Assembly: GCA_002631715.1 (NCBI GenBank)
Contig: MRSX01000003.1
Span: 361,286-425,285, forward strand
Source: Candidatus Porisulfidus sp. TsSOB
GTDB taxonomy: Bacteria; Pseudomonadota; Gammaproteobacteria; Poriferisulfidales; Poriferisulfidaceae
Direction of reading: 5' to 3'
Length of the DNA: 64,000 nt
In this document: positions 4,336 through 51,315 of the stretch, in pieces
Numbering within the stretch: the stretch's first letter is position 1
Layout of the letters: each line of letters opens with the position of its first letter
Position numbers and translations under genes: made by a program
Notes under the pieces: model-generated
What the model was told of the DNA's origin: nothing
What the model saw: the letters and a program-made list of their open reading frames with translations, nothing else
Databases searched by the model: none

Positions 4336-6939
4336 TCAGTCGTCATCTGCGGGAGAATCCAGTTTCCGCAATTCATAAATCAGGTCTAGAGCCTCCTTCG
4401 GCGACAACTGGTCGGGCTTCACCTGTCGGAGACGTTCCAGAGCGGCCGGGACGGATGGGGGATCGGAGGGCGGCACGAACAGATCTTTTTGCGGATTGCT
4501 GCGTGCCCAGCGCTGGGTGCTGTCGTCCTCAAGTTCCAGCAGGTATGCTTGGGCCCGTTCCAGCACCGGCGCAGGAATGCCCGCGAGGCGCGCGACCTGC
4601 AGGCCGTAGCTCTGGCTGGCGGGCCCTTCCTTGACGGCGTGCAGGAAGACGATCTGTTGGCCATGCATCGTGGCGTCTAGGTGCAGGTTGACGATCCCGG
4701 GATGGATCTCGGCCAGCTGGGTCAACTCGAAGTAGTGCGTGGAGAAAAGGGTGAATGCCCGGTTTCGGGTGGCCAGATATTCGGCACAGCCCAGTGCCAG
4801 CGCCATCCCGTCGAAAGTGCTGGTGCCGCGACCGATCTCGTCCATCAACACCAAGCTGTATTCAGAGGCGTGGTGCAGGATGTTGGCGGCTTCCGTCATC
4901 TCAACCATGAATGTGGAACGGCCAGAAGTCAGGTCATCGGAGGCTCCGATTCGGGTGAAGATGCGATCGATGGGGCCGATCCGGGCCTGCTTGGCTGGCA
5001 CGTGACTGCCGATGCAGGCCATCAGTACGATCAGTGCGGTCTGCCTCATATAGGTGGATTTGCCGCCCATATTCGGACCGGTGACGAGGAGCAAGCGGCG
5101 TTGCTCGGAGAGCAGCGTGTCGTTTGGCACGAATGGTTCGTTCCAAGTCAGTTCGATTACCGGATGGCGACCGGCTTCAATCTCGACGCCAGGTTCGTCG
5201 ACCAGCTCGGGGCAACAGTAATGGTGCGCTTTGGCCTGCTCGGCGAAGCTACAGAGTACGTCCAGTTCGGACAGCGCGTCTGCGCATTGCTTGAAATGGT
5301 TCAGGTGTGGTGTCAGGCTTTCCAGAAGATTCTGGTAAACCTGTTTCTCCCGCTCCAGCGCCCGGCTGCGTGCACTCAGGACGCGGTCCTCGAATTCCTT
5401 CAGTTCCGATGTCAGGTAACGCTCGTAGTTCTTGAGCGTCTGCCGCCGCCGGTAGTGATCGGGCACCCGCGCGGCTTGACTGCGCGGGACCTCGATGTAG
5501 TAGCCGTGAACCCGGTTGTAGGCGACTTTGAGCTGGGCAATGCCGGTGCTCTCCCGTTCGGTTGCTTCCATCTCCAAAAGAAAATCGTCGGCTCCGCGCG
5601 ACAGTTCGCGCAATTCATCCAATTCGGAATCGAATCCCGCCGCAATGGCGCCGCCTTCACGAATGGTCGGAGGAGGATTATCCGCGAGTGCTGAGGCCAG
5701 ATGTACGGCCAGTTCCGGATCCGATTGCAGATGGGCGCGATAGGAATCGAATTCTGCTGCGTCGATGTTCTCCAGCAAGCGGCGCAAGTCCGGCAGGCGC
5801 TGCAGGGTCTGAGCCAGGCCGCACAGGTCCCGCGGAGAAGCGGTGTATAGCGCAAGGCGGGCAATGACGCGCTCGATGTCAGAGACTTTCTTTAATTGTT
5901 CGCGAATCGGGGCGCGGTGAGTGTTGTCCAGCAGGTGGGAAACGATTTGGTGGCGTGTCGCCAGCATTTCCCGGTTGCGAAGGGGAGACTGGATCCATCG
6001 GTTGAGGCAACGACGGCCCATGGCCGTGACGGTTTTGTCCAATACACCGAGCAAGCTGTGGCGGGAATCGCCGGAGATGGTCTGCTCCAACTCGAGATTG
6101 CGTCGGCTGGTGGCATCCAGGTAGATATGAGTGTCGCGCCGCTCCCGTTGCAGGCTCGTGATATGCGGCAGGGCCGCTCGTTGCGTCTCTTGAGCGTAGT
6201 AGAGCAGGGCTCCGGCAGCTCCGGTGGCGGAGGGTGCGTCTTGGCAGTCGAAGGCGGACAGGTCATGAACCCCGAGTTGTTGGCACAAGAGCCGTGTGGC
6301 GGTCTCAACGTCGAAGTGCCAGTCCGAAAGAGGCTGCCAGTGCGTGTCTTCCCAGTCCGGAGGGGTGTTCGATTCCGGGTACAGGATTTCTGCCGGACGG
6401 AGACGTTCCAGTTCCGCGTACAGGTCTTCGATGGATGGAAGCTCCATTACATTGAAGCGTCCCGAACTCAAGTTCAGGCTGGCCAGCCCGATCGGATCCC
6501 CCGGCCACAGCGCAAGCAGCAACGTGTCGCGTCCGGCGTCCAGCAGTTCATCCTCGATCAGGGTTCCGGGCGTGACGATGCGCGAGATCTGGCGTTCCAT
6601 CGGCCCCCGGCCGGACGGGCTGTCGCCAACCTGTTCGCAAACCACCGCGGATTCCCCGAGGTCGACGAGTTTTGCGAGATAGGAATCAAGCGAAACGACC
6701 GGGATGCCCGCCATCGGGATGGGTTGACCCTTGGAGCGCCCCCGTTCGGTCAGCACGATATCCAGCAATTCGGAGCCGCGTTTGGCGTCCTCGAAGAACA
6801 ACTCGTAGAAGTCTCCCATTCTGTAGAGCAGCAGGTGCTGAGGATATTGCGCCTTGAACTCAAGGTACTGGCGCATGCTGGGAGTGTGCTGCTGCTGCGG
6901 CGTGGGTGAAGTCAACAGTGGAGCCGGTTGCAGTGCCAT
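4336..6939 (-). CDS. mutS: DNA mismatch repair protein MutS
   Basis: N-terminus [34 protein letters not shown] and Walker [14 protein letters not shown]. 867 aa. Confidence 0.95.
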
Positions 6940-7256
6940 GATGCTGCTATTGTGACAAATTTTCGATGCTCTCAGGAAAATTTTTAGCGGAACCTGCGGT
7001 GAACCTGAAGGAGTTTATTTCGCTGAAGCCAGCCGCACATTTTGTCGCGATGGATTTTGAGTCTCTGGTGTTTCCTCGCCGGAGAACATATCGTACAATG
7101 CAAGAAAGGTTCCCCTTTCGCGGTACGCTTTGCGAGGTGTTTGTGTACCATGAATTTTCCAAGTGCTTTGATTACGCTGAAGTTTACGGGACTTCTGATT
7201 TTGTCAGGTCCAGTACATTATCCCCAGTTTTTTCCGAAATCCAGCCCGCGTAACTC

Positions 7257-8792
7257 GTGAAATTTCTCAACAACTTCCTATCCAGAAACCGCGGGCTCGT
7301 CATCGCCGGTTTTGTGGTTCCCGCCAGTTTCGTCTACCACAATGTCGAGAATCTTCGAAAACGGATTCATCGGATGTTGAGGAACACCAGCGCTGAACAC
7401 GACAAAGCCGTCCAGACGATCCAAGCTCATGTGCAGGCTTGCCATGCCACTGGAAAATCAATGTGCACCGCGCGCAAGCCATGGCGAACGATGTCGGTGC
7501 GCAGCGCCGAGTTCAAGAAAGACATGCAGCAGGTTTCCATCAACCTTTGCAATGTCCTTGAGGTCGACGAGAAACGTTTAATCGTTCGCACAGAGCCGAT
7601 GGTCACCGTGGGAGATATTACTTCCTTTCTTGTTCCCAGGGGATTCGCGCTCGCTGTCCAGCCCGAGATGGAAGATCTTACCCTTGGAGGTCTGTGCATG
7701 GGCATCGGCATTGCAACAGGCAGTCACCGAGAGGGCTGCCTGTTCGAGTCGGTCGAGGCCTTCGAGATCGTTACCGCTACCGGAGAGTTTGTTCGCGCCA
7801 CGCGTGACCAGAATGCCGACCTTTTCCACGCTCTGCCCTGTTCCCACGGCACCCTAGGCTTTCTCGTAAGTATTGAGTTTCGCATTGTCCCGATTCAGTC
7901 GCACGTCAAACTCGACTACGAACCATTCCACTCGATCGACGCCTTCTGTGCACGCCTTGAGGAGCTTACCGCTTCCTCCGACGCCCCGCGTTTCGTAGAA
8001 GGACTCGTCTTCTCCAAGGAATCCGGCGTCATACTCGTTGGCGACTACGCGACACCCCCGCCCGGCGCACGCATCAATCGTATCAATGATTACTATAAGC
8101 CATGGTTTTACAGCCATGTTGGCCAGTGTCTGAAGACCGGGGCTGCCAGCGAATACATTCCTGCCCGTCATTATTTCCACCGCCACACGCCTTCCGTGTA
8201 CTTCCAACTGAAGGACCTCATTCCTTTTGCCAACACATCTTGGTATCGCTATTTGTGGGCTTGGATGGGTGCGCCGAAGGTCTCTCTGTTGAAACTGACG
8301 GTAACCCGGGAGCTCCGGCGCCAAGCTTTTGAAAACCGCGTCGTGCAGGACATCATGGTACCGATTGAGAACCTTGCTGAGTCTGTCCGCCTTAGCGACG
8401 AACTGTTCGATATCTACCCACTTTGGGTTGGGCCGGTGCGCCTCTTTGACCACGGTGCGAACGAGGGTTTTTTGCGGAATCCGGCCAACGGCGGCAGTAG
8501 CCAGATGTACGTCGACCTTGGCATTTTCGGTATCCCGCCGAATGCCAAAGCCGGCAACTACGACCAGGTGCCAACCATGCGCCGCCTAGAGAAGTTCGTC
8601 CGTGAGCGTGGCGGTTACCAGATGCTCTATACCGACATCTATATGACTCGCACCGAATTCGAGCACATGTTTGAGCACCGGCTCTACCGGAATATGCGTA
8701 ACAAGTACGCTGTCGAAAACGCCTTCCCCGAGGTCTACGACAAAGTAATACCGGAGAGTTGGCTCATTGATCTGCGAAGCACATCACCATGA
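7257..8792 (+). CDS. FAD-linked oxidoreductase, DHCR24/DWF1-like (delta-24 sterol reductase family)
   Basis: 511 aa. N-terminal TM helix followed by a PCMH-type FAD-binding domain. Same length and architecture as DHCR24. Sits in the sterol cluster. GTG start. Confidence 0.55.
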   Translation: MKFLNNFLSRNRGLVIAGFVVPASFVYHNVENLRKRIHRMLRNTSAEHDKAVQTIQAHVQACHATGKSMCTARKPWRTMSVRSAEFKKDMQQVSINLCNVLEVDEKRLIVRTEPMVTVGDITSFLVPRGFALAVQPEMEDLTLGGLCMGIGIATGSHREGCLFESVEAFEIVTATGEFVRATRDQNADLFHALPCSHGTLGFLVSIEFRIVPIQSHVKLDYEPFHSIDAFCARLEELTASSDAPRFVEGLVFSKESGVILVGDYATPPPGARINRINDYYKPWFYSHVGQCLKTGAASEYIPARHYFHRHTPSVYFQLKDLIPFANTSWYRYLWAWMGAPKVSLLKLTVTRELRRQAFENRVVQDIMVPIENLAESVRLSDELFDIYPLWVGPVRLFDHGANEGFLRNPANGGSSQMYVDLGIFGIPPNAKAGNYDQVPTMRRLEKFVRERGGYQMLYTDIYMTRTEFEHMFEHRLYRNMRNKYAVENAFPEVYDKVIPESWLIDLRSTSP

Positions 8793-8883
8793 CGGAGCTG
8801 CAACATTGAACTCGGTTTCCCTGCATTCTCTTCCGCTCAGCTTTCACGCTCGCCTTCTTGTTGCGCTGCGAAGATTTCTTGGC

Positions 8884-10221
8884 ATGCTGCTAGCGTTGAA
8901 TTTTGTGGCGCTGTGGGCAATACCCATCGTGGCTCAGGGCCGATTGTTTCGCGCCGGGTTACACCGTTTTCTGCGGCCCATCCACCGCCTCCTTGACCAT
9001 TCGGTTCTGTTGCGACACGTTGCCACAAAATACGTCTACCGGCGATCTGTGCATGCGGACTACTTTGCATCCGCAATATTTCTCATGATTGGTCTTGCGC
9101 TATCTCTCGCTGTACTTTTTACCTGGCAAATCTTGTTCGGAGAACTGCCATGGTGGCTCTTAGCGGCATACTATTTTGCATGGGTGGGATTTGGTGGCCG
9201 TGGTATGGGGACGGCATACACCTTGGCCCATCGCGAGGGCCATGTTGCAGGAGGCCGCATGTACCGGCCATGGATCGCCAAACACATTGGAAATATTTTT
9301 GAGAACCGCATCGGTCTATGGTACGGCCTCGTTCCGCACACGTTTTCGACATCGCATATTCTTCTTCATCACCGGCTGAATGCCGGCAAGGCAGACCCGC
9401 TTTACGTGTGGGATCTCGACCGCACCAAATTTAGCGACATGCTTTTGTATCAATGGCGGGCATTCGTGTACGTGACCGGCCTTGGCAGCATTCGAGAATT
9501 CCGCAGACAACAAGGCGTAAATCCGGCGATCCGAAAGGCGCATGCCAAGCTGTCGCGCGGCATGCGGATCTATTGGGTGTATGTGCCGGTGGCACTTGTT
9601 GCACTACTGGTGGCCACGGGCTCGAGTGTTTTATCGTCGCTCATGTTTCTGTTTTTTGTCTACATCCAACCGCTTTTTGCAATGTCGACGTTCATCGCAC
9701 TTGTGACTCTATCGCAGCATGGATTTCTTGAACATGACGAAAAAGGACGAAACCTGAAACACGTGGCTGCGATTACTATTTTAGGTGGTCATGACGATTC
9801 CTTCGGAGAAGACGATCATTTCTCACACCATTATTCTCCTGCTGTTATGCACGACAAACTGGCAGTGGCGCAATCCCTTGAAGAAAGCGAATGGGCTCGT
9901 TGTCACGGTTCCGTCTTCAAGGACACTTCCATAATCGAGATTGCGATTTTTTTGCTGCTTGGGCGGATTGACCGGCTGATTGATCGTCACTACGTAGATT
10001 ACTCAGGAGCACTGGGGAGAGATCAAATCGTCGAGCTGTTTACCCGCCGTGCAAAACGTAAGGAAATGAGCTATGAGGAATATGAATTTCGGTATCTTCC
10101 GGCACTAAGGGACAGCGTTCGCGATCACGTGAAACAAGGCCTCTTCAATAACGAAAACCATGCGTATATTTTCCAGGCCCATCACGAGATTGGTCCCGAG
10201 TTCAGGATGAGCCGAACTTGA
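8884..10221 (+). CDS. Membrane-bound His-box di-iron oxygenase (fatty-acid desaturase/hydroxylase superfamily), putative sterol desaturase/oxidase
   Basis: Multiple TM helices and three histidine boxes: HREGH, HILLHH, HDDSFGEDDHFSHHY. First ATG after the stop of the upstream gene taken as start; a TTG at 8806 is also possible. Confidence 0.5.
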   Translation: MLLALNFVALWAIPIVAQGRLFRAGLHRFLRPIHRLLDHSVLLRHVATKYVYRRSVHADYFASAIFLMIGLALSLAVLFTWQILFGELPWWLLAAYYFAWVGFGGRGMGTAYTLAHREGHVAGGRMYRPWIAKHIGNIFENRIGLWYGLVPHTFSTSHILLHHRLNAGKADPLYVWDLDRTKFSDMLLYQWRAFVYVTGLGSIREFRRQQGVNPAIRKAHAKLSRGMRIYWVYVPVALVALLVATGSSVLSSLMFLFFVYIQPLFAMSTFIALVTLSQHGFLEHDEKGRNLKHVAAITILGGHDDSFGEDDHFSHHYSPAVMHDKLAVAQSLEESEWARCHGSVFKDTSIIEIAIFLLLGRIDRLIDRHYVDYSGALGRDQIVELFTRRAKRKEMSYEEYEFRYLPALRDSVRDHVKQGLFNNENHAYIFQAHHEIGPEFRMSRT

Positions 10222-10233
10222 ACGAGCGGCGAC

Positions 10234-11301
10234 TTATTCAGTTCCTCGATTCTCGGGTTTGCGGGCCAGGAAGAAAAATGCCGGGGTAAAGAGACCGGAT
10301 TCGCCCCCTGCGACCAGTGCGTCCGCCCCCCTGTTCAGCAATGTGCTGACCATGGTGGAGCCTTTCGGAACGACCCGCAGCGTCTCCCCGACCCTTAAGG
10401 TCAAATTGGTCAGGGCGCGCCCGATGGGTGTGCGCGGAATGCTCGCGAGACTAAGGTCGCGACCCTGCAGGGCGCGATACCAAGGCATATCCGGATCCGC
10501 TTCGGGGGCGAGGTCGCGGGCTTCCAAAAACTCGAACCCAGCCGCGCTCAATGCGGGGCCGATTTCCGATGTGATGGTGATATCCGGTAGCCCATTCCCT
10601 TTCTCGATATCTTTCTTGATCCGAAGGTGCCGGGCATTCTCCGGATCGAAGTCCTCGGTGAGGCACCACTCGTAGCCCGCGAAGCAGGCTCCTGGGCGCA
10701 GGATGCGGAAGACCTCCCGGAACGCTGCGATCTTGTCCGGCGCGTGGGGCATGGACTCGATCGCGATGGCGGCGTCGTAGGAGTTGTCGTCCTCGGGAAT
10801 CTGCATGAAATCACCGTGGATGAAGCGGCACAGCGACTGGATGTCTTGGCTTTGTGCTTCGGCACGCTTGATCTGGTAGGCATTATTGTTGAGACCGACG
10901 AAACTGGCCCCGGAATAACGGGCCAGCGTGCGCATTGGTCCCCCGATCCCGCAGCCCAGGTCAATGACCTGCATCCCGGGTTTCAGTGACAGCTGATCAG
11001 CTAGGAAATGCTCGTGCCTGAGCAGTGACTCCTTGAAGCTTTCGCCTCGAAGCCGGGGCGCGAAGTGAAAGGACTGACCCCAGCCGAATTCGTAAAAGTC
11101 GGTCGCCAGGTCGTAGTAGTGATTGACGAGTATCTGGTAGTCCTCTTTCCTGTTCTCCAGGTCGTCATCGTGGAGCCCGGTGTACTGATCGACCGCCTGG
11201 GTCACTTCATCCGGAGTGAGATCCGAGAAGGAACGGGAACTCGATTGTTTGGTGGAGGTGCGGCTCATTCGGTTATCCTGCCAGTTCGCGCTCTTCTTCA
11301 A
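10234..11301 (-). CDS. Sterol C-24 methyltransferase (ERG6/SMT family)
   Basis: Signature YYDLATDFYEFGWGQSFHFA (SMT region I) and SAM motif VIDLGCGIGGP. ATG overlaps the stop of the upstream SQMO-OSC ORF (ATGA). Confidence 0.8.
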   Translation of the reverse strand: MKKSANWQDNRMSRTSTKQSSSRSFSDLTPDEVTQAVDQYTGLHDDDLENRKEDYQILVNHYYDLATDFYEFGWGQSFHFAPRLRGESFKESLLRHEHFLADQLSLKPGMQVIDLGCGIGGPMRTLARYSGASFVGLNNNAYQIKRAEAQSQDIQSLCRFIHGDFMQIPEDDNSYDAAIAIESMPHAPDKIAAFREVFRILRPGACFAGYEWCLTEDFDPENARHLRIKKDIEKGNGLPDITITSEIGPALSAAGFEFLEARDLAPEADPDMPWYRALQGRDLSLASIPRTPIGRALTNLTLRVGETLRVVPKGSTMVSTLLNRGADALVAGGESGLFTPAFFFLARKPENRGTE

Positions 11302-14300
11302 GAAGCGGCAGATACGCTGTGCGGCTCTTCCAGGGCCGCTGCCGCCAAAGGCACCGTGTCGCTCTCAATTGCGTCGGTAGCAAGGGAATCGGCAGTTGCC
11401 AGTTCCAGCCGGGCCCGGCGCCGTTGCTCATAGAGGCCAAGCGCGCGTAGGGGGAAATACTGCCGATACAGAACGTAGTCCAGCAGGGCCGTACGGAAAA
11501 AGACCCCGGCCATGTCTTGCTTGGGCCATGCGCCATCCGCGTTTTGGGTGTCGAGCAGGAACCGGGCACCCCGCGAGATCGCGGCCCAGTTGGGATCGTC
11601 CGCCTCAAGGAGCGCAATCAATGCCCATGCGGTCTGGATAATCTGGCTTTCGTCGTGTGCAACGTATTGGCCGGTGAAGCAACCGCTGTAGTGCTCACCC
11701 CATCCTCCGTCTCCGCGCTGACGGTCCAGCAGCCATTGGCAGGCCAAGCGTAGTACCGGATCGCCGGGGCGGGCCCCGGCTGCAAGCAGGCCCCTGATTC
11801 CGAAGGAAGTACCGTAGATGAACTGAACCCCCCATACGCCGCGCCACGATCCATTGCTTGCCTGAGTCCGGCGAAGCCAGGCGCCGGCTTGCGACATGGC
11901 ATCCGTCACTGCTTGGTCCGTGGTGTCCGGAAAGTGCTTCTTGCAGGCTGCGAGTGCCGCAAGGCAAGAAGCGGTGCACTCGACATAGGAATGTTCAGTC
12001 ATCGACTCGCCGAACATCTCGGCCGGATTCAGCCATTCAAGCCCGATTACGGAGCGTTGCGCTTCATAGCTGCCGAAACCGCCATCGCGGTTCTGGCCCC
12101 GCAGCATGAACTGGATCGCGTCTTTGAGCATGGTTGTGTTCGTCGCCTCGCGGTGGGCAGCGATAATTCCGAGCACTGCTTCCGCAGTGCAGTCGGTGAC
12201 CGGCCAGCCATGCCACTGTCCGGCAAAGCACCAGCCACCCTTGGGGTCGTTTCGAAAAGCCTCACGAAATCCTTCGAAACTGGTCTTGATTTGTTGCGTT
12301 TCCAGGAAATCGGCCCCGCGTTGGAGGGAATTTCGAACTTCAGGGGCCAGATCGAGTCTGGACATTGTTTCCAATGCTTGCAGGGCGAAGCCGGTATCCC
12401 ACGAAATGCTTCTCGCCCCGGTGACTCGTGCCCCGTATTCCTCGTCTTCCCAGATCCAGTCGTCCAATTTCTCGAGTGCTTGGCGACTGTCGGGGTCGTT
12501 CGGGTTGCGCAGCCATAAGGCCAGGATGTTGAGGAGCCCGCTGACCGGGGAGATGCTCGTGTGATTGGTCGTTCGCAGTTCCCATTGGATTCGCTCGGTG
12601 ATCGTGTCCATGCATCGAGCGCGCAGGTGTTTACTATGGAATCGTTCAAATAACTGCGAAAACCCATACCCGACCCGGAGCCATACACTGGGCCGCGCAT
12701 GGAGGTCGGCGCTTCGCAGACGATTGCGGCCCGCGGAAAAGCCGACGTTGGCAAAACCCTCGGGATATAGCTCTTCTCGCAGTGATGCGATCAAAGGCGT
12801 GACAGGTGCCTGAAACCGATATGAGTAGACAGCCGACATCGCCATGTAGATGAGCCGGGTATGGCAATACCAGTTGGAGGGGTGCAGCGGAATCCAACGC
12901 GGCAGGCTCCACAGTTCCGGCAGGATGGCGTTGATTCCGCGCCAGTCGTAGAGGTTGAGGAGCGCCAGCCAGAATTTTCCCCAACTCGGAATGCCGAGGA
13001 CTCCTTCGGTCTGCAGGAATTCCTGGGCCGGCTTCAGCAGTGGATCATCCCGCTCGACGCCAAGCAGCCTCGCCGCGACGTAAACCAGCGTGGTGACAAA
13101 CAAGTTGGGAGGCGGGTGCTCGTGCAGGCCCCATGCGCCTCCTTCTAGGCGAGTCTGTTCGAAAGACCGCAGCACGCGTCGGCGTCGGTCGGGATCGAGC
13201 GGCTGCTCCATGATGTAGTGCAGCAGTACGTACTGCGCGGTGAGCATGGGGCACCAAACCATCTCGCCTTCCCAGGCGCCATCCCCATCCTGGAGATCCA
13301 GCAGGCGCTCGCTCGCGCTCTTCAATGCCGGGCCGGCATCGGGCGATTCGACCGTCCACGGGCGGGCGGGTTGAGAGTCGTCGGCCTTCGACGGGATGGA
13401 GACCAGGAACGTGTGGGACCAAGTGGCCCGGATTTGCTCGTCCTCTCCTTCGCCCGTGTTTCTCGCCCGGTGCAACATCCGAGCACCCCGCAGCAACCAT
13501 TTGAGACGGCCCGAGAGTGAATTGAAGGTATCCCGGGCACGGCGCCAGGCAAGTTTGTCGAAGGATCGCGGCATTTCTCTGGCAATCGCCCGGACCATCG
13601 TCGTGAAAAACGCGGAACTCAGGTGGATAACCGATGTGTCTTCACAGGCGAGTAAACGCATGGTCCGGTCGCGCATCGTAGAATTTGCCCGCCAGCCTCG
13701 GTAGGTTGCATGTCGGAGAGCCACCACCTCGGCCCGATGATCGGCAAAGACCTCGTAGAGTCCTATGGCAAGGAACTCCGGAGTACGGATCGCCCGGAAA
13801 CGCTTCTTGGTGAAGTCGCGAAAGTCCCCGTTCTCGGCGAGTGCAAGCGCATCACCGAAACCGAGGGTGATTCCAACCGCCGACATGGGATGGTAGTGCC
13901 CGGCCGCATCGCCGATCAGCACTCGATTCGGACTCCCGTAGCTAACACGCGGCCTCAGCTTATTACTGGCAGTGCGAAACCGCCCCGCCCGCAGCGCTTC
14001 AACAAACGCGGGTCGGACTGATTCCGGCAACCAACCGGTGTACGAGTCCAACAGGAACCCAATCCGATCCCGGGGTGTCCAGCGATCCGCCGGAACATCT
14101 ACGACGATGCGCACGCCGCGCTCTCCGAGGCGGTACATGAGGATCGGCCCGGGTCCACCCCCCAACACGTACCCATAACCCTCCAACGGCAACGTCACGT
14201 CATCGACCAAAACTCCTACCATCCACGAGCAAGTTTTATGGTTCGTCGGCAAGCCCAGTGATCGACGCACGACCGAACCCCGACCGTCGGCACCGACGAT

Positions 14301-14759
14301 CCGCGCAGCCGCGACAGACTCATCGGTCCCGTTGCGAGTAAAAGTGATTCGTCCGTCTACGACCTCACGAACCTGTGCATTGAGAATGAAATCAATACTC
14401 GATTTGCTCTCGATCGCTTCGTGCAGATGCGAGACGAGCACCGCATGCTCGCAGGCCAACCCGTGAGCGCCGTCCGGATAGGGAAGTATGATCGGTTCCG
14501 AGTCGTCTTCCGGGCACACCACGAACCCGTTGCCTGCCCCGATGGGAGGCTGCGTGTCGAGCCCGATCCCGATCTCGCGCAGTATCCGCACGGCGGGGGG
14601 GTGCAGCCATTCTCCCGCTAGTCGCTTGGAAGCCTCGGGGCTCGCTTCGAGCAGGACAACCCGGGCGCCTTTTCGCGCGTAGGCGAGCGCACACACACTG
14701 CCGACTGGCCCCCCGCCGACAATCGCGACATCGTAATGCCGGGTGGGGGGGATGCTCAC
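11298..14759 (-). CDS. Fused squalene monooxygenase (N-terminal) and oxidosqualene cyclase (C-terminal)
   Basis: N-terminal half has the FAD motifs DVAIVGGGPVGS and LIGDAAGHYHP of squalene epoxidases. C-terminal half has QW repeats and VTDCTAEAV (OSC-type DCTAE, not SHC DxDDTA). One uninterrupted frame. Start taken at a GTG (14759) overlapping the CYP51 TGA; the ORF-track TTG at 14828 is the alternative. Confidence 0.8.
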   Translation of the reverse strand: MSIPPTRHYDVAIVGGGPVGSVCALAYARKGARVVLLEASPEASKRLAGEWLHPPAVRILREIGIGLDTQPPIGAGNGFVVCPEDDSEPIILPYPDGAHGLACEHAVLVSHLHEAIESKSSIDFILNAQVREVVDGRITFTRNGTDESVAAARIVGADGRGSVVRRSLGLPTNHKTCSWMVGVLVDDVTLPLEGYGYVLGGGPGPILMYRLGERGVRIVVDVPADRWTPRDRIGFLLDSYTGWLPESVRPAFVEALRAGRFRTASNKLRPRVSYGSPNRVLIGDAAGHYHPMSAVGITLGFGDALALAENGDFRDFTKKRFRAIRTPEFLAIGLYEVFADHRAEVVALRHATYRGWRANSTMRDRTMRLLACEDTSVIHLSSAFFTTMVRAIAREMPRSFDKLAWRRARDTFNSLSGRLKWLLRGARMLHRARNTGEGEDEQIRATWSHTFLVSIPSKADDSQPARPWTVESPDAGPALKSASERLLDLQDGDGAWEGEMVWCPMLTAQYVLLHYIMEQPLDPDRRRRVLRSFEQTRLEGGAWGLHEHPPPNLFVTTLVYVAARLLGVERDDPLLKPAQEFLQTEGVLGIPSWGKFWLALLNLYDWRGINAILPELWSLPRWIPLHPSNWYCHTRLIYMAMSAVYSYRFQAPVTPLIASLREELYPEGFANVGFSAGRNRLRSADLHARPSVWLRVGYGFSQLFERFHSKHLRARCMDTITERIQWELRTTNHTSISPVSGLLNILALWLRNPNDPDSRQALEKLDDWIWEDEEYGARVTGARSISWDTGFALQALETMSRLDLAPEVRNSLQRGADFLETQQIKTSFEGFREAFRNDPKGGWCFAGQWHGWPVTDCTAEAVLGIIAAHREATNTTMLKDAIQFMLRGQNRDGGFGSYEAQRSVIGLEWLNPAEMFGESMTEHSYVECTASCLAALAACKKHFPDTTDQAVTDAMSQAGAWLRRTQASNGSWRGVWGVQFIYGTSFGIRGLLAAGARPGDPVLRLACQWLLDRQRGDGGWGEHYSGCFTGQYVAHDESQIIQTAWALIALLEADDPNWAAISRGARFLLDTQNADGAWPKQDMAGVFFRTALLDYVLYRQYFPLRALGLYEQRRRARLELATADSLATDAIESDTVPLAAAALEEPHSVSAAS

Positions 14760-16144
14760 TGGAAAATGCTGGCCTGCGGGCGGCGGCGGTAACGGATTCG
14801 GCAGGGTTCCCTGGGGCCTGTCACCCAACTGCCGTAATTCGGTTCGGGAAACTCGGTGACGGGCTGAAAATCAAAGCGATCAAACAGCACGGTCCAGATT
14901 GCTTTCAGTTGCATGTAAGCAAAATGTTCACCGATGCACCGGTGTTTGCCGCCGCCAAAACTGATCAAGGCATAGTGGTGCTGTTTGCCCTCGGATGCAG
15001 GTGGGGCGAAACGGTCTGGGTTGAAGCGGTTCGGATCGGCAAACAGGTGGGGCAACCGTTGGGAGACCGCCGGCGACACCATGGCCAAGGCACCGGCTGG
15101 CACGACATGATCCTTGTAGTGCAAGGGCCTGAGTACCTTGCGGATTAGCATGATCAACGGCGGGTGCATCCGCTCGCATTCGCGAATGGCGTGCTCTAGT
15201 GTGACTTGGTGCCTGAGGCTCTCGTAGCTCACGGTTCCTGCCTCGCGGTAGGTGTCTTGCACCTCGTCTTTCACCCGCGCCAGGTACGACGGGGCCCTCA
15301 TGAGTTCCAGAAGGGTCCAGGTTGCGAGCACCGCGCTGGTGTGCTGGCCCGCGAACAGCACCGTCAGCAGGATTCCGGTAATCTCGTCATCGCTTGGGGC
15401 GTGGCCATCCTTGTACCGAGCGTTCATGAGGGTCTGCATGAAATCTTCAGGCTGGGCATCGGTTCGCCGACGTTCCGCCATGATCTGGCCGAAGAGCTTG
15501 GCGACTTTTCGGCGGGCCCGGTCGCGGCTCCGATGTGCCGGGATTGGGAGATAAGGGAAAAAGAACCCCAGGGTGTTGATGCCGTTTTGCAGTTCGTGGT
15601 ATGCCTCGGCGAATCCTGCGTCCAGCTGGGCCCGGACTTCCTCTCCAATGAGGCAACGGCTGGCGATCTTGACGGTGAGTTCGTTCATAGCGTGGGGCAG
15701 GTCGACTTCCCCATGCTCGCCGAGATCCTCGGCGAACTGCCAAGTCTCCTCGAACATGATGCGGGCGAACCGGCGCATCGCGGCTTCATTGAGCGCCGGA
15801 TACAGAAATCCCAATTGCTCGAGCATCAGTTCAGGCGTAGTGTCGTAAGCCACGCCACGCCCGAAGATGGGCACCGTGAACTGGTAGACCTCTTTGGCGC
15901 TGAGCTGGTCTTCGGGTGCGTGGAAGTAGAAGTCGTGAGCTTCGGGCCCGGTGAAGAGGAAGAATTCGCGCGGGCCGAGCCGGAACCGGATGAGCTCGCC
16001 CTGCTCGCGCCAGCCGCGCTGCAGCATCGCGATCGGGTCCTTCTGGAAATCCAGCAGATGGCCGATCAACGGCCACCTGCCCGCGACCTCGGGAATGGCC
16101 CGGGACTCCTGCGGCGAAAGTGGGGTGGAACGTACGGTGGTCAT
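14756..16144 (-). CDS. Sterol 14-alpha demethylase (cytochrome P450 CYP51)
   Basis: Heme loop FGGGKHRCIGEHFA, I-helix AGQHTSA and B' region YQFTVPIFGRGVAYD are CYP51 signatures. Start at MTTVRS, 14 nt after the reductase stop. Confidence 0.8.
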   Translation of the reverse strand: MTTVRSTPLSPQESRAIPEVAGRWPLIGHLLDFQKDPIAMLQRGWREQGELIRFRLGPREFFLFTGPEAHDFYFHAPEDQLSAKEVYQFTVPIFGRGVAYDTTPELMLEQLGFLYPALNEAAMRRFARIMFEETWQFAEDLGEHGEVDLPHAMNELTVKIASRCLIGEEVRAQLDAGFAEAYHELQNGINTLGFFFPYLPIPAHRSRDRARRKVAKLFGQIMAERRRTDAQPEDFMQTLMNARYKDGHAPSDDEITGILLTVLFAGQHTSAVLATWTLLELMRAPSYLARVKDEVQDTYREAGTVSYESLRHQVTLEHAIRECERMHPPLIMLIRKVLRPLHYKDHVVPAGALAMVSPAVSQRLPHLFADPNRFNPDRFAPPASEGKQHHYALISFGGGKHRCIGEHFAYMQLKAIWTVLFDRFDFQPVTEFPEPNYGSWVTGPREPCRIRYRRRPQASIFQ

Positions 16145-16158
16145 GTCGTCAGGTTGCT

Positions 16159-17253
16159 TCAATAGACGAATGGCAGCATCGCGAAACGCACTCGCTTCGT
16201 ATACCGCTCCCACAGTTCGCCGTACTTGGCGCGGCAGCGACGGTCGTCGCGTCTTGAGCGATGCGACAACAGACCCACCAACCACGCGGGCAGCAGGTAG
16301 GGCACCCAGGATGCGAATCCGGTGGTCAGGGCGAACGAAAAGTAAATGCAGATCTCGCCGGTATAGTTGAGATGCCGCCCGACTCCCCAGAACCCGGAGA
16401 CCAGCAGGCGCCCGTCCAGGGACTCGGCGGGCTTCCCCCAGATCTTGGCGTGGGAGTCACGCTTGAAACGGTGCTTTTGCCCGTTGGCGCCGCGGAAGAG
16501 CCAGAAGCCGAAGACAAACAGCAGGGTGATTGCGACGGCAGCGACGGGGGACAGGGGCTCGGTTGCATGGACCAGCCACCAGCCGGCAAGGCAATAGAAG
16601 AACGGCACCAGCACGTAGTCTCCCCAGACCAGCATCCATCCGAAGCGCTCGCTGACGATGTCCCAGGTGTGAACCATTCCGTATTCGAAGTGGAAGTAGT
16701 TGAGGACGTACAGGAAGGTGAAGGCCTGGTAAAGCATCATGGCCAAGGTCAGTTCGCCGTAGGTTTCGTATTGCACGGCGGCGAACGAGACGTTGAACAA
16801 CGCGAGGCCGATGAGGGAAGGGCGGTAACTGAAAAACTTCAGATCCACCCCAAACCAGGTCGGATGGCCTTCCACGCCATAGAAGAAGCCCTCCAGTCCT
16901 CTTGGGGAATCGCCCTGGGCTCGGGTGCCTTGGTAGTACAGCAAGGCGGAAAAAGCAAACGCGAATACGTTCGCCACCACGAACAGGGCGAGAAAGTGGG
17001 TATACAGCACCGAAAGAGAGAACCAGCCGGAGACTTGGGCAAGCCCTCCCACGACCATGGTCAGCAGGAACAGGGCAAGCCCATTGCTCCTGTAGATCCT
17101 TGATTTTCCATCGTAATCTGGACCCGTAATCCGGCGTCCGGGCAACAGCATCGAACCCAGGAACAGAAAGCCGAAGAATGCCAGCATCATGGCTGCCGCG
17201 TCGAGCAGGGTGCTGCCGGACAGCGCAATCAGCGAGAAGGGCAGTTCAGGCAT
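16159..17253 (-). CDS. Sterol reductase, ERG4/ERG24 family (C-14 or delta-24(28)/delta-7 reductase)
   Basis: Polytopic membrane protein with the C-terminal signature LLVSGFWGVGRHLNYTGEICIYFSFAL. Confidence 0.8.
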   Translation of the reverse strand: MPELPFSLIALSGSTLLDAAAMMLAFFGFLFLGSMLLPGRRITGPDYDGKSRIYRSNGLALFLLTMVVGGLAQVSGWFSLSVLYTHFLALFVVANVFAFAFSALLYYQGTRAQGDSPRGLEGFFYGVEGHPTWFGVDLKFFSYRPSLIGLALFNVSFAAVQYETYGELTLAMMLYQAFTFLYVLNYFHFEYGMVHTWDIVSERFGWMLVWGDYVLVPFFYCLAGWWLVHATEPLSPVAAVAITLLFVFGFWLFRGANGQKHRFKRDSHAKIWGKPAESLDGRLLVSGFWGVGRHLNYTGEICIYFSFALTTGFASWVPYLLPAWLVGLLSHRSRRDDRRCRAKYGELWERYTKRVRFAMLPFVY

Positions 17254-18343
17254 AGGTGTTGCCGTTCTCCGCTTTGCGTGCCAGGTATTCCCGCCACTTG
17301 CGCACGGTCACGTCCTGGAAAGCCTCGACCACGGGGTTGAACTCGACGGTCGGAGCGTCCCAATGTTTTTCGTAACCTTCCTGTTCTCCTTCGAGCGCGT
17401 ATTGATCCTGGGTGAGCAACGGGCCGATGAGGATGCGGTTCGAGATCTTTAGAACAAAGGTCATGGCGAAACGGGGAATGTGGACCGGCAGAAAGGGTAT
17501 CTTCAGCGACTTGAAATAGAACAAAAAGAAGGTCCGGGTGGTCCGCTCGTCGATGGGCAGCACGAAAAGCCAGTGTTTGATCCAGTCATCGGTGTTCGAC
17601 CATTGGTAAGGGTATTGGAAGCAGAGATCCATGTGATTGGTGTCGAGTTTTTTGTGGTCGACGAATAGCCCGGAGATACGCCCGCGTCCGACCTGAGTCT
17701 CGTAGGAGAGGTGCACGTCATCGCCGATGGTCTCGCAGCGGGTGAGGGTGGCGCCGACGAAAGGCCGGTATTCACGGTGCAGATGGGCATGAGAGAAGTC
17801 GCTCACGTTGTCGATCACCATAGAGTGGTGGGCCGACCAGGTGAAAGTGAGCGGGACACAGGCCCATCGGCCGCGTCCCTCGAGTTCGGGGATGTCCGGG
17901 ATCTGCCGCGATTCCGCCTTCTCCGGGTCTCCGGGAAACAACCAGACCAGGCCGTAACGGACTTTTACGGGGTAGGATCGGATCGAGACGTTCTGACAAC
18001 TTTCCCCGAGGTGCTCGCGAGGCCCTCCGGCACGTTGCCCCTCTCCGTCGTATTGCCAGCCATGGTAGGCGCAGACCAGCCGACAGTCCTCGACATGGCC
18101 GAGGGAAAGCTTGAGCTGGCGGTGGGCGCAACGATCCTCGACCGCATGGAACGAGCCGTCCTTCGCCCGGAACAGTGCGATGGCATGCTTCCAGAAAACG
18201 ACTTCAGTCACGCTTCCCGGCTTGACGCGACGTACTTCTTCGACCGCGTACCAATAATCCGGGTCCATGCCCGCGGCGCGTGCTTTCTGGCGTAAATTGC
18301 TGGCTTCATCGAAGCCAGGAGGCGGGCTTGTCATTGAGTCCAT
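17246..18343 (-). CDS. Rieske [2Fe-2S] non-heme iron oxygenase, SdmA-like (bacterial sterol C-4 demethylase oxygenase)
   Basis: Rieske motif CAHRQLKLSLGH...CAYHGWQY. Location between a sterol reductase and an NAD-dependent reductase mirrors sdmA-sdmB. Confidence 0.65.
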   Translation of the reverse strand: MDSMTSPPPGFDEASNLRQKARAAGMDPDYWYAVEEVRRVKPGSVTEVVFWKHAIALFRAKDGSFHAVEDRCAHRQLKLSLGHVEDCRLVCAYHGWQYDGEGQRAGGPREHLGESCQNVSIRSYPVKVRYGLVWLFPGDPEKAESRQIPDIPELEGRGRWACVPLTFTWSAHHSMVIDNVSDFSHAHLHREYRPFVGATLTRCETIGDDVHLSYETQVGRGRISGLFVDHKKLDTNHMDLCFQYPYQWSNTDDWIKHWLFVLPIDERTTRTFFLFYFKSLKIPFLPVHIPRFAMTFVLKISNRILIGPLLTQDQYALEGEQEGYEKHWDAPTVEFNPVVEAFQDVTVRKWREYLARKAENGNTYA

Positions 18344-18344
18344 T

Positions 18345-19487
18345 TCAGCCTCCGTCCGAAGTGATGGGTGTGCCTTGATCCGGCATGAGTTCTTCTACTT
18401 GTCCCGCGCCGTCCGTGCATGGGGGTTTCGCGTCCGGGTTCGTGATCGCCTTGCGCTGGTGGTAGTGAAAGGCGTAGGCTTCGTGGACCGCGGCGCGGAT
18501 GCTGGTCGGTCGGTAGCCGAGTTCCTCTTTCGCCTTGCTGTTGTTGGCATGGCGGCACTTTTGCAGCAGGCGGATGGCGCCGGGAGTGAAGCGCTGGGGG
18601 AAGCTCGGATGGAACCGGCTCAGGTAAAAACTGGCCACTTCCGAGAAAGCGAGCATCGCGCGGACTGGAATCCGCCGGTGCGGGCGCGGGATGCCGGAGA
18701 CTTCCTCGTACAGGTCGATGATGTCGGAGATGGTTTTGTACTCGGAACTGAAGATATATTTCTCGCCCGAGCGTCCTCGGTCCATGCACAACCGGTGTCC
18801 TTCAACGATGTCCCGTGCCGCGACAAACTCGAAGCCGCCATCGACGTAGGCATGGAGTTTGCCGTTCGTGTAATCGCACAGGGTTCTACCCAATCGCGAG
18901 GGGAAGAAATCGCTGCCCCCCACAACCGCGCAGCACGTCGCGACCAAGACGTCCTGTCCGGCTGACGCGGCGCGCCAGCACTCGTGTTCGACGAGTGTCT
19001 TGCTGCGCTCGTAGGGCATCGTACGTTCCATGGGATAGAAAAGCATCGTCTCGTCGCTGGGGGCGGAAGGGTCATCCAGGTTGTACCCGACCGCGCTGAA
19101 GGAGCCCGTCACGACCACCCGGCCGGCTTCCGTCTCCCGTGCCGCCTGCAGCATGTTGCGGGTGCCGAGAACGTTGCATTCGTATATTTCCCGACGGTGG
19201 GCGTGGTTTCCTTCGATGGTCGAAACCTTGGCTGCACAGTGATAGACGCCCTGGCAGCCCTCGACCGCACGCCTGACGGAATTCAAGTCCCGGAGGTCGC
19301 CGAACACGCGTTCGACCTCGAGGCCTTCCAGCGCCTCGTTGTTCTCTTCGTGTCTTAGCAGCACCCGGACCCGGGTGCCTTCGTCGAGTAGCCGGCGCAC
19401 GAGATTGGCGCCCACGTGTCCAGCCGCACCGGTAACGAAAACGGGTGCAGCCGATGAATTGCCGGGTGTGCTCGATCCTGAAGTCAT
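18345..19487 (-). CDS. NAD(P)-dependent epimerase/dehydratase (3-beta-HSD-like) family reductase, SdmB-like
   Basis: Rossmann motif VFVTGAAGHVGANLVRRL and catalytic YERSK. First gene of the minus-strand sterol operon. Confidence 0.65.
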   Translation of the reverse strand: MTSGSSTPGNSSAAPVFVTGAAGHVGANLVRRLLDEGTRVRVLLRHEENNEALEGLEVERVFGDLRDLNSVRRAVEGCQGVYHCAAKVSTIEGNHAHRREIYECNVLGTRNMLQAARETEAGRVVVTGSFSAVGYNLDDPSAPSDETMLFYPMERTMPYERSKTLVEHECWRAASAGQDVLVATCCAVVGGSDFFPSRLGRTLCDYTNGKLHAYVDGGFEFVAARDIVEGHRLCMDRGRSGEKYIFSSEYKTISDIIDLYEEVSGIPRPHRRIPVRAMLAFSEVASFYLSRFHPSFPQRFTPGAIRLLQKCRHANNSKAKEELGYRPTSIRAAVHEAYAFHYHQRKAITNPDAKPPCTDGAGQVEELMPDQGTPITSDGG

Positions 19488-19747
19488 CTTGGCCCTGATT
19501 CCGAAACTCTGGTTATTTCCGTCCGTTGTTCGGCGTCATCGAGGGCGCACGCAGGCGAATACGTTTGATGGACAAGCGCGTCACGGAATTAGCCGCTCCA
19601 CGATATTTTCTTCAAGCCCATCGGGTAGCTGGGCACCGATCTGCCTGCCAGTCATCCCTCGCATATGACTGATGACATAATTCTAACAAACTTATAGTTT
19701 GGCACCGAAGTGCGCAGACCTGCAGAATTTTTTGAGAGTGAGGGTGC

Positions 19748-20077
19748 CTATTTCGCAGGAGCGAAGAGGATTACTAGGGTGAGAATGCCGGTTATGGTTC
19801 CGGTTGCCCCGCCCGCGACGGCCAGGATGTGCCAAGAGAGTTTATTGAACCTTGCTTCCATCTCCCCACGCAGTCTAAATTCCATCTCCGCCAAGTCAGC
19901 CTTCGTCGCTAACTCGCTTTGCGCATCCTGAAGGGTCTCGACCAAGGTCACGGCCTGTTTGTCTCCGAATTCTGCTTTCTTCAGATTCTTGACAGCCCGC
20001 AGTGTATCAAAGTTCGGCGGGGTGACCTTTTTGCGCGCATCGGTTGTGGCTTCGGACCTTTTTGCGCTCGGGTTCAT
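19748..20077 (-). CDS. DUF1640-like coiled-coil protein with C-terminal TM helix
   Basis: LATKADLAEMEFRLRGEMEARFNKL... followed by a hydrophobic tail. Start at MNPSAKR with a strong SD (AAGGAGA). Confidence 0.45.
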   Translation of the reverse strand: MNPSAKRSEATTDARKKVTPPNFDTLRAVKNLKKAEFGDKQAVTLVETLQDAQSELATKADLAEMEFRLRGEMEARFNKLSWHILAVAGGATGTITGILTLVILFAPAK

Positions 20078-20389
20078 ATCGGTTCTCCTTGACGGGGGCG
20101 GGATGAATGTGGGGAGACTCTTTCTATTGAGGGTCTCCATGGCTAGGTTCGGGATGATGCCATGAGATCGGTGAAAATCAAGGAAAAATGGTCGGAATTT
20201 TTAGACCGTTTTTTCTAAATTAGAATCAAACGGTTAGAGATCAAACTGAATGCCTGTGAGTCGGATTTTCGAGAGTTTTTCGTGTTTTTAGTTTCGTGGG
20301 CTCGTCGATTCCTGCAGAGTGCGGATTTTTCGACTCGGCCGGATGGATCAGACCCGGATAACCATACTAAGGGCTTCCGGAGAAGGGAT

Positions 20390-20779
20390 TCACGGAACTG
20401 AGAGCCAGCCGCGGATTTCGGCTTGGATGCTTCTTATCTGCCTGAGCGCAGCTTGAATTTCGGAAGGCTCAGGAGGTCTTGGAAATTCGCCTTCGGCATC
20501 CGGATAACGCCAGGCGGTTGCTGCCCCGGTGAGGCTGTCGAGTTTGACGAGGCTTTTCCTGAGAGGGTGTTCTTGGGCTAGTTGTTCGGTAATTCGGGTG
20601 ATGTCGTGGGTACGAAGATCCGGGAGCCCTTCGTGCAGGCACACGGCACGCGCGAGTTTTTCTGCAGCCTGCTGGGCGTGGAATGCCGCCAGGTCCGGGA
20701 GGTCTGGAAGGAGAAGATCGACGCCAGCGATATCCCGTTCGGCGGTCTTCAGGAATCCTAGGACAAGCGGAGAGGTCAT
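20390..20779 (-). CDS. HEPN domain protein (toxin component of a HEPN/MNT pair)
   Basis: AAFHAQQAAEKLARA-type HEPN helix. ATGA overlap with the upstream MNT gene. Confidence 0.6.
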   Translation of the reverse strand: MTSPLVLGFLKTAERDIAGVDLLLPDLPDLAAFHAQQAAEKLARAVCLHEGLPDLRTHDITRITEQLAQEHPLRKSLVKLDSLTGAATAWRYPDAEGEFPRPPEPSEIQAALRQIRSIQAEIRGWLSVP

Positions 20780-21992: not shown

Positions 21993-23022
<1,030 letters not shown>

Positions 23023-23042
<20 letters not shown>

Positions 23043-23469
23043 CGCCGTGCAGCAGGCGGTCAGTCTTCTGGCGCGACGCGAACATTCGAGCCGGGAGTTA
23101 CGAGACAAGCTGCAGGCGCGAAATTTTTCTGCCGAGGCAGTGGAAGCGGCACTCGCAACCTTGCGCGAGCAGGATCTGCAAAGTGACCAGCGTTTTGCGG
23201 AAGCCTGCGCCCGTTCCTTGATGGATCGCGGCTACGGCAGCCTTCGCGTGGCAAATGAATTACGCGAGCGCGGCGTGTCGGGCGACATTGCGCAGGAGTT
23301 CGAGTCTTTGGCTAGGAAAGGGGAGTTCGAACGCGCCTGCGAAGCCTTGCGCCGAAAGACGGGAACACGGCAGCAACAGTTGCGTTTCCTGAGCCAGCGG
23401 GGGTATCCAGGCGAGGTCGCGAGACAGGCGGTTGATACGGCACTTCGGGAGAGTCGAGATGACGAGTAG
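23023..23469 (+). CDS. recX: RecA regulator RecX
   Basis: About 148 aa immediately after recA, of the RecX family. Confidence 0.85.
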
Positions 23470-43714: not shown

Positions 43715-44167
43715 TCAGAGCACCAGGATGTCGGGACGTTCGTAGTTTTTCTGGATGTAGTCGTTCAGGTCGCTCACCCAGTTTGGATCTGGAATTTCCG
43801 GCGGCAGTTCTCCGATGCTGGCGCGCGCTCGGGACAGTTCGGACTGGGAATCTTCCAGGAGCTTGTCGCACTGCGTGAGGACGGTGGTTGCTTCGCGACG
43901 ATAGATTTCTTCGAACACAGTGGCGGTTACACGGTGGACGAGTGCTTGCCGGACGACGCCAAAGTGGGTGCAGACACGTTCGGTCAGACCGATCAAGGCG
44001 CCGTTGATGTGGGGGTCCTGCTGCATTGAGACCGGAACGTTTCCAAGGTCATCCTGAACGGGTGTGAGGCAGGGCAGGAGCAGGGCGAGGGTTTTCTGGC
44101 GGGCCTTGAGCGTGCGGGGTTTTAGGAACTCCATGGGGATGTGTGGCCGGATAACGCATTTTAGCAA
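43715..44167 (-). CDS. Hypothetical protein
   Basis: ORF only. Confidence 0.3.
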   Translation of the reverse strand: MLKCVIRPHIPMEFLKPRTLKARQKTLALLLPCLTPVQDDLGNVPVSMQQDPHINGALIGLTERVCTHFGVVRQALVHRVTATVFEEIYRREATTVLTQCDKLLEDSQSELSRARASIGELPPEIPDPNWVSDLNDYIQKNYERPDILVL

Positions 44168-44243
44168 GGATGCGCTGGCGATTCGGGAAACCTATAATCA
44201 CACATCAGCGCACACGGGCTATTGATTCCTTGAGCGGTGAACC

Positions 44244-47137: not shown

Positions 47138-47266
47138 TTTCCACTAAGTAAAAAATACGATCTACTTTGCGACGAACCAAGCTCTATGGGGGCGTTCTTG
47201 TATACTGGCGTCCGTCAGAATTTAGAGTATTTATACCGTCCGCCTGTTTGGTAGCTGGGACTAAAA

Positions 47267-48121: not shown

Positions 48122-48178
48122 CAGGGTGGATATCATTTATCCCTAAACAATTACACCTTATCCCAACCCGAACAAACC

Positions 48179-49105: not shown

Positions 49106-49147
49106 GTAGTACCTTTCTGCAAATTGTAAGGTGTCCGCAGGTCCATA

Positions 49148-50290: not shown

Positions 50291-50365
50291 CAGGGCAATT
50301 TTGTGCACAAACAGGTCATTATCTGCGCCGGATTGTTTCTTGAGGCGTAAATACTGGAATTGATT

Positions 50366-51163: not shown

Positions 51164-51315
51164 TCTACTGGATATGACTCATGGTGTATGGCAAAAATCC
51201 CCAACAATTTGTTCTTTTCGAGAGGCATAATCTTCTGGAGCAATCCACCTAAAAACTCCCATATGCTAAAGTAATCTCACACTTTTTGGCGGGGTTTAAC
51301 CACGGAATCACCCAC

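Follow-up and report, generated by a model that had tools for sequence, protein, structure and literature searches.

An already published and assayed ERG6-type sterol C-24 methyltransferase at the 3' end of a probable sterol operon in the sponge symbiont Candidatus Porisulfidus sp. TsSOB

The window analysed here comprises 64,000 nucleotides (nt) of contig MRSX01000003.1 (positions 361,286 to 425,285) from the sponge symbiont Candidatus Porisulfidus sp. TsSOB and contains one copy of a sterol methyltransferase (SMT) gene, described as ERG6-type in an initial annotation made from the DNA letters and their translations. The gene lies on the minus strand, as do all of its features given below, within an open reading frame (ORF) spanning 10234..11301, and its coding sequence occupies 10234..11268 (344 residues, ATG start, TAA stop at 10234-10236); the exact 344-residue sequence is already on record on the NCBI contig. 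Pfam comparison identified a class-I methyltransferase domain (Methyltransf_11, E 3e-17) and, at residues 279-339 (10252..10434), the C-terminal domain Sterol_MT_C (PF08498; E 7e-21; score 74.5 bits, cut-off 21.7), matches that lie far beyond chance. By BLASTP the protein is 41.566% identical to yeast ERG6 over 332 residues (E 4e-91). Since the ERG6 sequence used carried the expected residue at 28/28 positions named in the literature, residue numbering based upon it is sound. Both motifs on which the initial annotation had relied were located in the SMT reading frame. Region I, the sterol-binding segment YEFGWGQSFHFA, spans residues 59-70 counted from the ATG (11059..11094) and includes Y81 and F83 in yeast numbering, with residues 59-69 (YEFGWGQSFHF) conforming to the consensus Y/F-E-x-G-W-G-x-x-F-H-F, and Region II, the S-adenosylmethionine (SAM) motif VIDLGCGIGGP (DxGxGxxGP), spans residues 101-111 (10936..10968). 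Region III (YDAAIAIESMPHAPD, 10735..10779) holds the equivalent of E195, Region IV (RPGACFAGYEW, 10666..10698) holds the equivalent of G217, and the codon for N225, corresponding to yeast position 249, lies at 10594..10596. Brown & Welander 2025 describe 25 residues that every experimentally functional SMT shares, and an alignment anchored on ERG6 numbering placed all 25 in the window SMT.

The protein and its gene cluster have been described previously. Brown et al. 2023 (Nat Commun 14:1859, PMC10070321) include a 'Theonella swinhoei associated Chromatiales sp. SMT 1 of 2' (IMG genome 2690315631, gene 2690455922, scaffold 2690316284), and Supplementary Data 1 of that paper lists gene ..920 as DHCR24 (40.8% to human) and ..922 as the SMT (41.57% to ERG6), followed by ..923 as both ERG1 and ERG7, ..924 as ERG11, ..925 as ERG24, ..926 as sdmA and ..927 as sdmB. 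The gene order in the window is the same as this published order, DHCR24-x-SMT-ERG1/7-ERG11-ERG24-sdmA-sdmB, and the percent identities obtained here to ERG6 (41.57) and human DHCR24 (40.8) equal the published figures. Furthermore, residues 101-129 of the window SMT are identical at 29/29 positions to a row of the Brown & Welander 2025 alignment, VIDLGCGIGGPMRTLARYSGASFVGLNNN (yeast 123-151), that differs from all other rows. Because gene order, percent identities and this unique 29-residue stretch all agree, the window SMT is IMG gene 2690455922. In the published work ten sponge-symbiont SMTs were expressed in Escherichia coli and lysates were supplied with desmosterol and 24-methylenecholesterol; eight gave 24-methyl sterols, three also gave 24-ethyl sterols, and two of the three ethylating enzymes, both from Aplysina, continued to 24-isopropyl sterols (PMC10070321). 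The window SMT is reported to methylate the Δ24 bond of desmosterol in vitro. In the preprint of Brown et al., which also models the structures of related SMTs, the T. swinhoei cluster is said to have 'a functional sterol methyltransferase'. In the Brown & Welander 2025 alignment the row of the window enzyme stands with those of active enzymes, close to the '(1)' label and higher up than the 'No activity' group, to which the second SMT of this metagenome-assembled genome (MAG), located on another contig, is assigned. The window enzyme is thus indicated to be functional and, by row order in the alignment, single-methylating, the latter with slightly less certainty. The in vitro assay and phylogenetic placement that had been proposed as checks are already published for this gene, and the assignment as an SMT is correct but not new, protein and cluster having been published and assayed in vitro in 2023. 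Taken together, the Sterol_MT_C domain, the full-length ERG6 match, the 25 conserved residues and the published in vitro data on the same protein identify the protein as a genuine member of the ERG6/SMT1 family of SAM-dependent sterol C-24 methyltransferases, encoded by a gammaproteobacterial sponge symbiont of the T. swinhoei-associated Chromatiales / 'Ca. Porisulfidus' lineage, a reading to which a probability of approximately 0.93 is assigned.

Residues associated with the number of carbons added were then read from the alignment, in which the window SMT has Y81, F83 and N249. Glycine at yeast position 249 is reported to be necessary, not sufficient, for 24-propylation. The window enzyme lacks G249, carrying N225 at the corresponding position, and it does have the Phe at 81 and/or 83 that accompanies propylation, in the form of F83; F83 alone is common among non-propylating SMTs. 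The assignment of position 249 was checked against ERG6 and against the context of an Aplysina mutagenesis primer (RIKNDIMVGGGLPDI versus RIKKDIEKGNGLPDI). Every G249 substitution assayed, including G249N, abolished C30 products, and a Chlamydiae SMT carrying G249N retained C28 and C29 and lost C30 products. Given N249 and this G249N result, the window SMT is expected, by analogy, to give 24-methyl(ene) products, possibly 24-ethyl products on the right substrate, and no 24-isopropyl sterols. When relatives were scanned with one genome per species, the pattern at positions 81, 83 and 249 among the best 80 species-representative relatives was YFD in 45, YFN in 29, YFT in 5 and FFG in 1. G249 was found in only 3 of the 120 best database matches, one of these being P0049, which is 73% identical to the window SMT. 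This protein was tied to a published Aplysina SMT by three-frame 5-mer coverage of the supplementary DNA text, which has dropped bases and frameshifts, and the coverage of 91%, against 67% for the next best candidate, identifies P0049 as the propylating Aplysina enzyme.

The SMT gene is the last of a head-to-tail series on the minus strand in the order sdmB, sdmA, ERG24, CYP51, SQMO-OSC, SMT. The first gene, sdmB (18345..19487), encodes the short-chain dehydrogenase/reductase partner for sterol C-4 demethylation and matched NF052578 (E 3e-91), and sdmA (17246..18343) encodes a Rieske-type 4-methylsterol monooxygenase that matched NF052579 (E 9e-121), both scores being below the equivalog cut-offs. 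An ERG24-type Δ14-sterol reductase at 16159..17253 (E 3e-72 to 4QUV) represents the sterol reductase noted initially. It is followed by a CYP51 sterol 14-alpha-demethylase at 14756..16144 (E 1e-102 to Methylococcus capsulatus CYP51, 6MCW), with a probable ATG at 16144 inside a maximal ORF that reaches 16285, and by a fused squalene monooxygenase-oxidosqualene cyclase (SQMO-OSC; 11298..14828, maximal ORF 1176 residues), a fusion already noted by Brown et al. 2023 (PMC10070321). A GTG at 14759 overlaps the CYP51 stop codon (GTGA, 14759-14756) and may be the real SQMO-OSC start, giving a protein 23 residues shorter than the maximal ORF. The catalytic motif of the cyclase, VTDCTAE (fusion residues 877-883, window 12180-12200), carries Val at position -2 relative to the catalytic Asp; Val at this position is the lanosterol-synthase state and Ile the cycloartenol state, and the motif presumably points to a lanosterol-type product. 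Successive junctions in the series measure 1, -8, 14, -4 (possible) and 29 nt, with the sdmA stop overlapping the ERG24 start by 8 nt (ATGCCTGA, 17246-17253), and a scan of 6800-20500 for promoters and terminators gave counts not above those of shuffled controls and therefore marks no transcript boundaries. This gene packing, together with the lack of promoter or terminator signals above shuffled sequence, is consistent with one operon, and the genes from sdmB to SMT are probably co-transcribed. Bacterial sterol clusters of sponge symbionts are recognized by an ERG24-CYP51-OSC core in co-linear order that is preceded by sdmB/sdmA and has an SMT at its 3' end, and the window shows this arrangement. 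As the sterol block sits between mutS (4336-6939) and recA/alaS (21993-26059), it is located in the core bacterial chromosome.

A pathway can be proposed from these genes in which SQMO-OSC would convert squalene via oxidosqualene to a lanosterol-type product, CYP51 and ERG24 would remove the 14-methyl group and SdmAB would remove one C-4 methyl, the expected output being C-14-demethylated, partly C-4-demethylated Δ24 sterols. The pathway scheme in the preprint of Brown et al. ends at 4-methylcholesta-8,24-dien-3-ol. The SMT would act on such a Δ24 intermediate, transferring one methyl group from SAM to C-24 of the Δ24(25) bond. In SMT chemistry as summarised from Nes and co-workers, addition of a methyl cation to C-24 generates a C-25 cation, and a hydride shift and proton loss then lead to 24(28)-methylene or Δ25(27) products; here, quenching of the carbocation by proton loss would yield 24-methylene or related C28 sterols. 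The DHCR24/DWF1-like enzyme encoded beyond the SMT gene could reduce the 24(28) bond to give a 24-methyl side chain, or could compete for the Δ24(25) bond. The native substrate and the in vivo product are inferred, as are the co-transcription of the genes and the function of the reductase; the earlier proposal that the cluster could yield 24-methyl (C28) sterols is backed by the published in vitro data on the same protein.

The junction between the cyclase and SMT genes reads, on the coding strand, GCT TCT TGA AGA AGA GCG CGA ACT GGC AGG ATA ACC GAA TGA GCC. The initial annotation had placed here an ATG overlapping the SQMO-OSC stop codon (ATGA) and had concluded that the two genes are translationally coupled, a claim that does not survive inspection of the sequence. 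The cyclase stop TGA is at 11300-11298 and the sole overlapping start is a TTG (TTGA, 11301-11298), not an ATG. Coupling through TTGA instead of ATGA would draw on the TTG at 11301-11299 being in frame with the SMT, on the presence of ATGA at this junction in the relative L002 (the only one to have it among those compared) and on the true overlaps of 4-8 nt at other junctions in the operon. However, this TTG has no Shine-Dalgarno (SD) sequence, whereas the ATG at 11268-11266 is preceded at 7 nt by an SD-like AGGA (11279-11276) within the 29 nt spacer (11269..11297) that follows the cyclase stop. The junction was compared in nine co-directional relatives, seven of them Porisulfidus-type (L001-L006, L014), and the ATG (beginning MSR or MRL) with GGAG or AGGA approximately 7-10 nt upstream is kept in all seven of the latter. 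In L004 the cyclase stop is TAA and there is no overlapping start, and the spacer of 27 nt in L005 differs from the 29 nt of the window by a non-multiple of three. Since the TTG is lost in L004 and the frame of the spacer is not kept, the N-terminal extension from TTG is not coding; SMT homologues are 339-345 residues long with MSR or MRL starts, and gene callers elsewhere also yield 344-residue products. The conserved ATG and SD site and the length of the homologues indicate 10234..11268 as the real coding sequence, such that coupling by overlap is very improbable and the SMT is predicted to be translated from an ATG with an SD site of its own, 29 nt beyond the cyclase stop.

The identity of the enzyme itself was weighed against three other explanations. 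A non-sterol SAM methyltransferase, of the cyclopropane synthase or UbiE type, that happened to carry a Region-I-like motif would explain weak Pfam and NCBIfam matches to CMAS, UbiE and other families, and in a PDB sequence search, which returned no solved eukaryotic or bacterial SMT among its matches, the top-scoring entries were small-molecule methyltransferases such as MitM (E 7e-21, residues 55-197). All of these matches are confined to the Rossmann core and the NCBIfam ones lie far under curated cut-offs, whereas the ERG6 match is full-length, the SMT-specific C-terminal domain and 25/25 functional residues are present and C-24 methylation in vitro is published; domain and score comparison thus places the protein nearer bona fide SMTs than CMAS, UbiE or other methyltransferases, and the non-sterol reading, discarded on this evidence and the published biochemistry, is almost certainly wrong. 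Equally remote is mis-binning of eukaryotic DNA, from sponge or alga, into a bacterial contig. The SMT, DHCR24, ERG24 and CYP51 proteins are indeed eukaryote-like at 30-42% identity, but their genes are intron-less and overlapping with SD sites, lie between mutS and recA/alaS on a 444-kb contig for which the published Whokaryote call is prokaryote, and are accompanied by the bacterial-type C-4 demethylase pair SdmAB; contamination was discarded on the strength of this gene architecture, the bacterial flanks, SdmAB and the Whokaryote call. More than one alkylation in vivo, giving 24-ethyl (theonellasterol-type) or 24-isopropyl sterols on the native substrate, is an unlikely third reading. A signature sterol of T. 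swinhoei is 24-ethyl, F83 favours sequential methylation, the protein is 73% identical to a propylating enzyme and the published assays covered two non-native substrates only; against this, the published alignment groups the enzyme with single-methylating ones, position 81 is Tyr and not Phe, and with Asn at position 249 it has one of the non-glycine residues with which C30 products were never obtained. Several points nonetheless weigh against the interpretation of the gene as a single-methylating enzyme of a working pathway. The published assay substrates differ from the likely 4-methyl Δ8 or Δ8(14) substrates of the symbiont, the organism is uncultured and the in vivo activity and product of its SMT are inferred, the single-methylation grouping follows from row order and OCR-shifted labels, the Chlamydiae G249N enzyme still made C29 sterols, such that a second methylation may be possible on the right substrate, and expression of the operon is presumed. 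The preferred reading remains that of a genuine ERG6-type SMT, functional in vitro and expected to add chiefly a single methyl group.

Downstream of the SMT gene and convergent with it lie two plus-strand genes. The first (7257..8792) encodes a DHCR24/DWF1-like FAD-dependent sterol side-chain reductase, in agreement with the initial annotation, with 204/500 identical residues (40.8%, E 2e-138) to human DHCR24, a value equal to the published one, and a FAD_binding_4 domain (PF01565, E 6e-12). The second (8767..10221) encodes a three-His-box membrane di-iron protein of the FA_desaturase family with a weak Pfam match, carrying the boxes HREGH, HILLHH and HFSHH, and its stop codon is 12 nt from that of the SMT gene. 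This His-box protein gave no match in a PDB sequence search or in NCBIfam. Its family is small, with 142 database matches, all unnamed, and includes eukaryotic homologues at 42-43% identity in a cryptophyte transcriptome and on a fungal-looking contig (L084); a metagenome scan recovered four loci, only one in a sterol context. The deposited gene call is only 320 residues, against approximately 470 in homologues, and the gene (IMG ..921) is not listed in the gene table of Brown et al. 2023 (PMC10070321). The protein is a candidate new sterol-modifying enzyme. Together the two genes form a 3.27-kb module (6963-10233) that some genomes carry and other, near-identical ones lack: it is present in L002, L003 and L081, and missing from L001 and L005 (97-98% protein identity in mutS), in which approximately 80 bp separate the SMT stop from mutS. 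The GC content of the module is 0.53-0.57 versus approximately 0.60 in its flanks. Elsewhere in the window a second region of low GC content (44000-52000; 0.48-0.54 versus approximately 0.60) encodes glycosyltransferases (GT1, GT2, GT9), a UDP-glucose dehydrogenase fragment, an FkbM-type methyltransferase and a HipA-like toxin kinase, and is probably a horizontally acquired surface-polysaccharide locus.

Close relatives of the SMT were found in 168 species-representative genomes, and the best 80, all MAGs, are 68-96% identical to it and carry the labels Gammaproteobacteria, Nitrospirales, Binatia, Alphaproteobacteria, Gemmatimonadetes, Rhodothermales, Acidobacteria-type, Thermodesulfobacteriota, Opitutales and others. 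The same sdmB-sdmA-ERG24-CYP51-SQMO/OSC block is present in approximately 55 of these 80 loci at 55-97% protein identity, the SMT following the cyclase on the same strand in Porisulfidus-type genomes and being convergent in most others. Kelly et al. 2022 (Microbiome 10:164, PMC9531527) reported a steroid gene cluster in 115/537 Ircinia MAGs, which belong to ten phyla; their gene trees point to horizontal transfer, and an SMT is often associated with the cluster, at its 3' end. With relatives in 168 species and clusters in 115 of 537 Ircinia MAGs, the view expressed in the initial annotation that bacterial SMTs are rare is outdated for sponge microbiomes. In the relative L005, protein identity to the window is 93-98% across sdmB to OSC and mutS, but only 78.5% for the SMT (L005:10001-11032), which groups with those of L004 and L006; it looks as if recombination between related symbiont lineages had exchanged the SMT allele and nothing else. 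In many related loci (L007, L009, L012, L016, L017, L025, L026, L065) the main SMT is also accompanied, within 10 kb, by one or two further paralogues (40-50% identity, 69% once).

The signature sterols of Theonella, conicasterol and theonellasterol, are 24-methyl or 24-ethyl, Δ8(14), 4-exo-methylene sterols, and their proposed biogenesis proceeds from a Δ24 sterol from which just one of the C-4 methyls has been removed, through SAM-dependent methylation to a 24-methylene sterol, to a reduced 24-methyl product. Genes matching those steps are present in the symbiont, namely SdmAB, CYP51, ERG24, the single-methylating SMT and the DHCR24-like reductase, and the His-box enzyme could, for example, oxidise or desaturate the remaining 4-methyl to the exo-methylene. 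That the cluster is the bacterial source of the Theonella signature sterol skeleton is nevertheless an improbable proposition; the link is weakened because the same DHCR24-like/His-box module occurs on a Sarcotragus foetidus symbiont contig, and the literature searched yielded no paper tying the symbiont cluster to conicasterol or theonellasterol. If true, the SMT would represent one step in the route by which the symbiont arrives at a sponge natural product that has been studied for its pharmacology. As a separate observation, the combination of 24-alkylation, Δ8(14) unsaturation and a single modified C-4 carbon in these sterols fits a bacterial SdmAB-type pathway with an SMT.

Sterol alkylation by bacteria bears on the geological record, where 24-alkyl steranes (ergostane, stigmastane, 24-isopropylcholestane) in ancient rocks are read as biomarkers of eukaryotes or sponges, an inference that is weakened by any bacterium making 24-alkyl sterols de novo. 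Brown et al. 2023 (PMC10070321) made this case from a set of genes that includes the present one, and it was extended in 2025 to residue-level predictors of the carbons added per SMT; re-finding the SMT gene adds no new biology. What is new here is modest and consists of a corrected gene start without coupling by overlap, the residue-level prediction of a non-propylating SMT, and the recognition of the DHCR24-like/His-box pair as a module present or absent among near-identical genomes.

Among known systems, the published T. swinhoei associated Chromatiales SMT 1 of 2 is the same protein in the same gene order, with no detectable difference. Yeast ERG6 shares 41.6% identity over 332 residues, Regions I-IV, the Sterol_MT_C domain and single methylation with the window enzyme, and differs in having Y83, D249 and a longer N-terminus and in acting natively on zymosterol, within the endoplasmic reticulum pathway of a eukaryote. 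The propylating SMT of Aplysina aerophoba (JGIcombinedJ30088_10000835 1 of 2; P0049/MCY4612337.1, from a Nitrospira sp. MAG) is of the same length and 73% identical, has all 25 functional residues and F83 and belongs to a comparable sdmAB-ERG24-CYP51-SQMO/OSC cluster; in contrast to the Y81 and N249 of the window enzyme, which is listed with single-methylating SMTs, it carries F81 together with G249 and can add as many as three carbons, and the SMT gene of its lineage converges on the cyclase gene instead of following it. The ERG24-CYP51-LSS clusters of Kelly et al. (PMC9531527) have the same core operon, their 'DFR' and 'hypothetical' genes being SdmB and SdmA, respectively, and likewise carry the SMT at the 3' end, although usually on the opposite strand, whereas in the window and in Porisulfidus-type genomes the SMT gene is co-directional and directly follows the cyclase.

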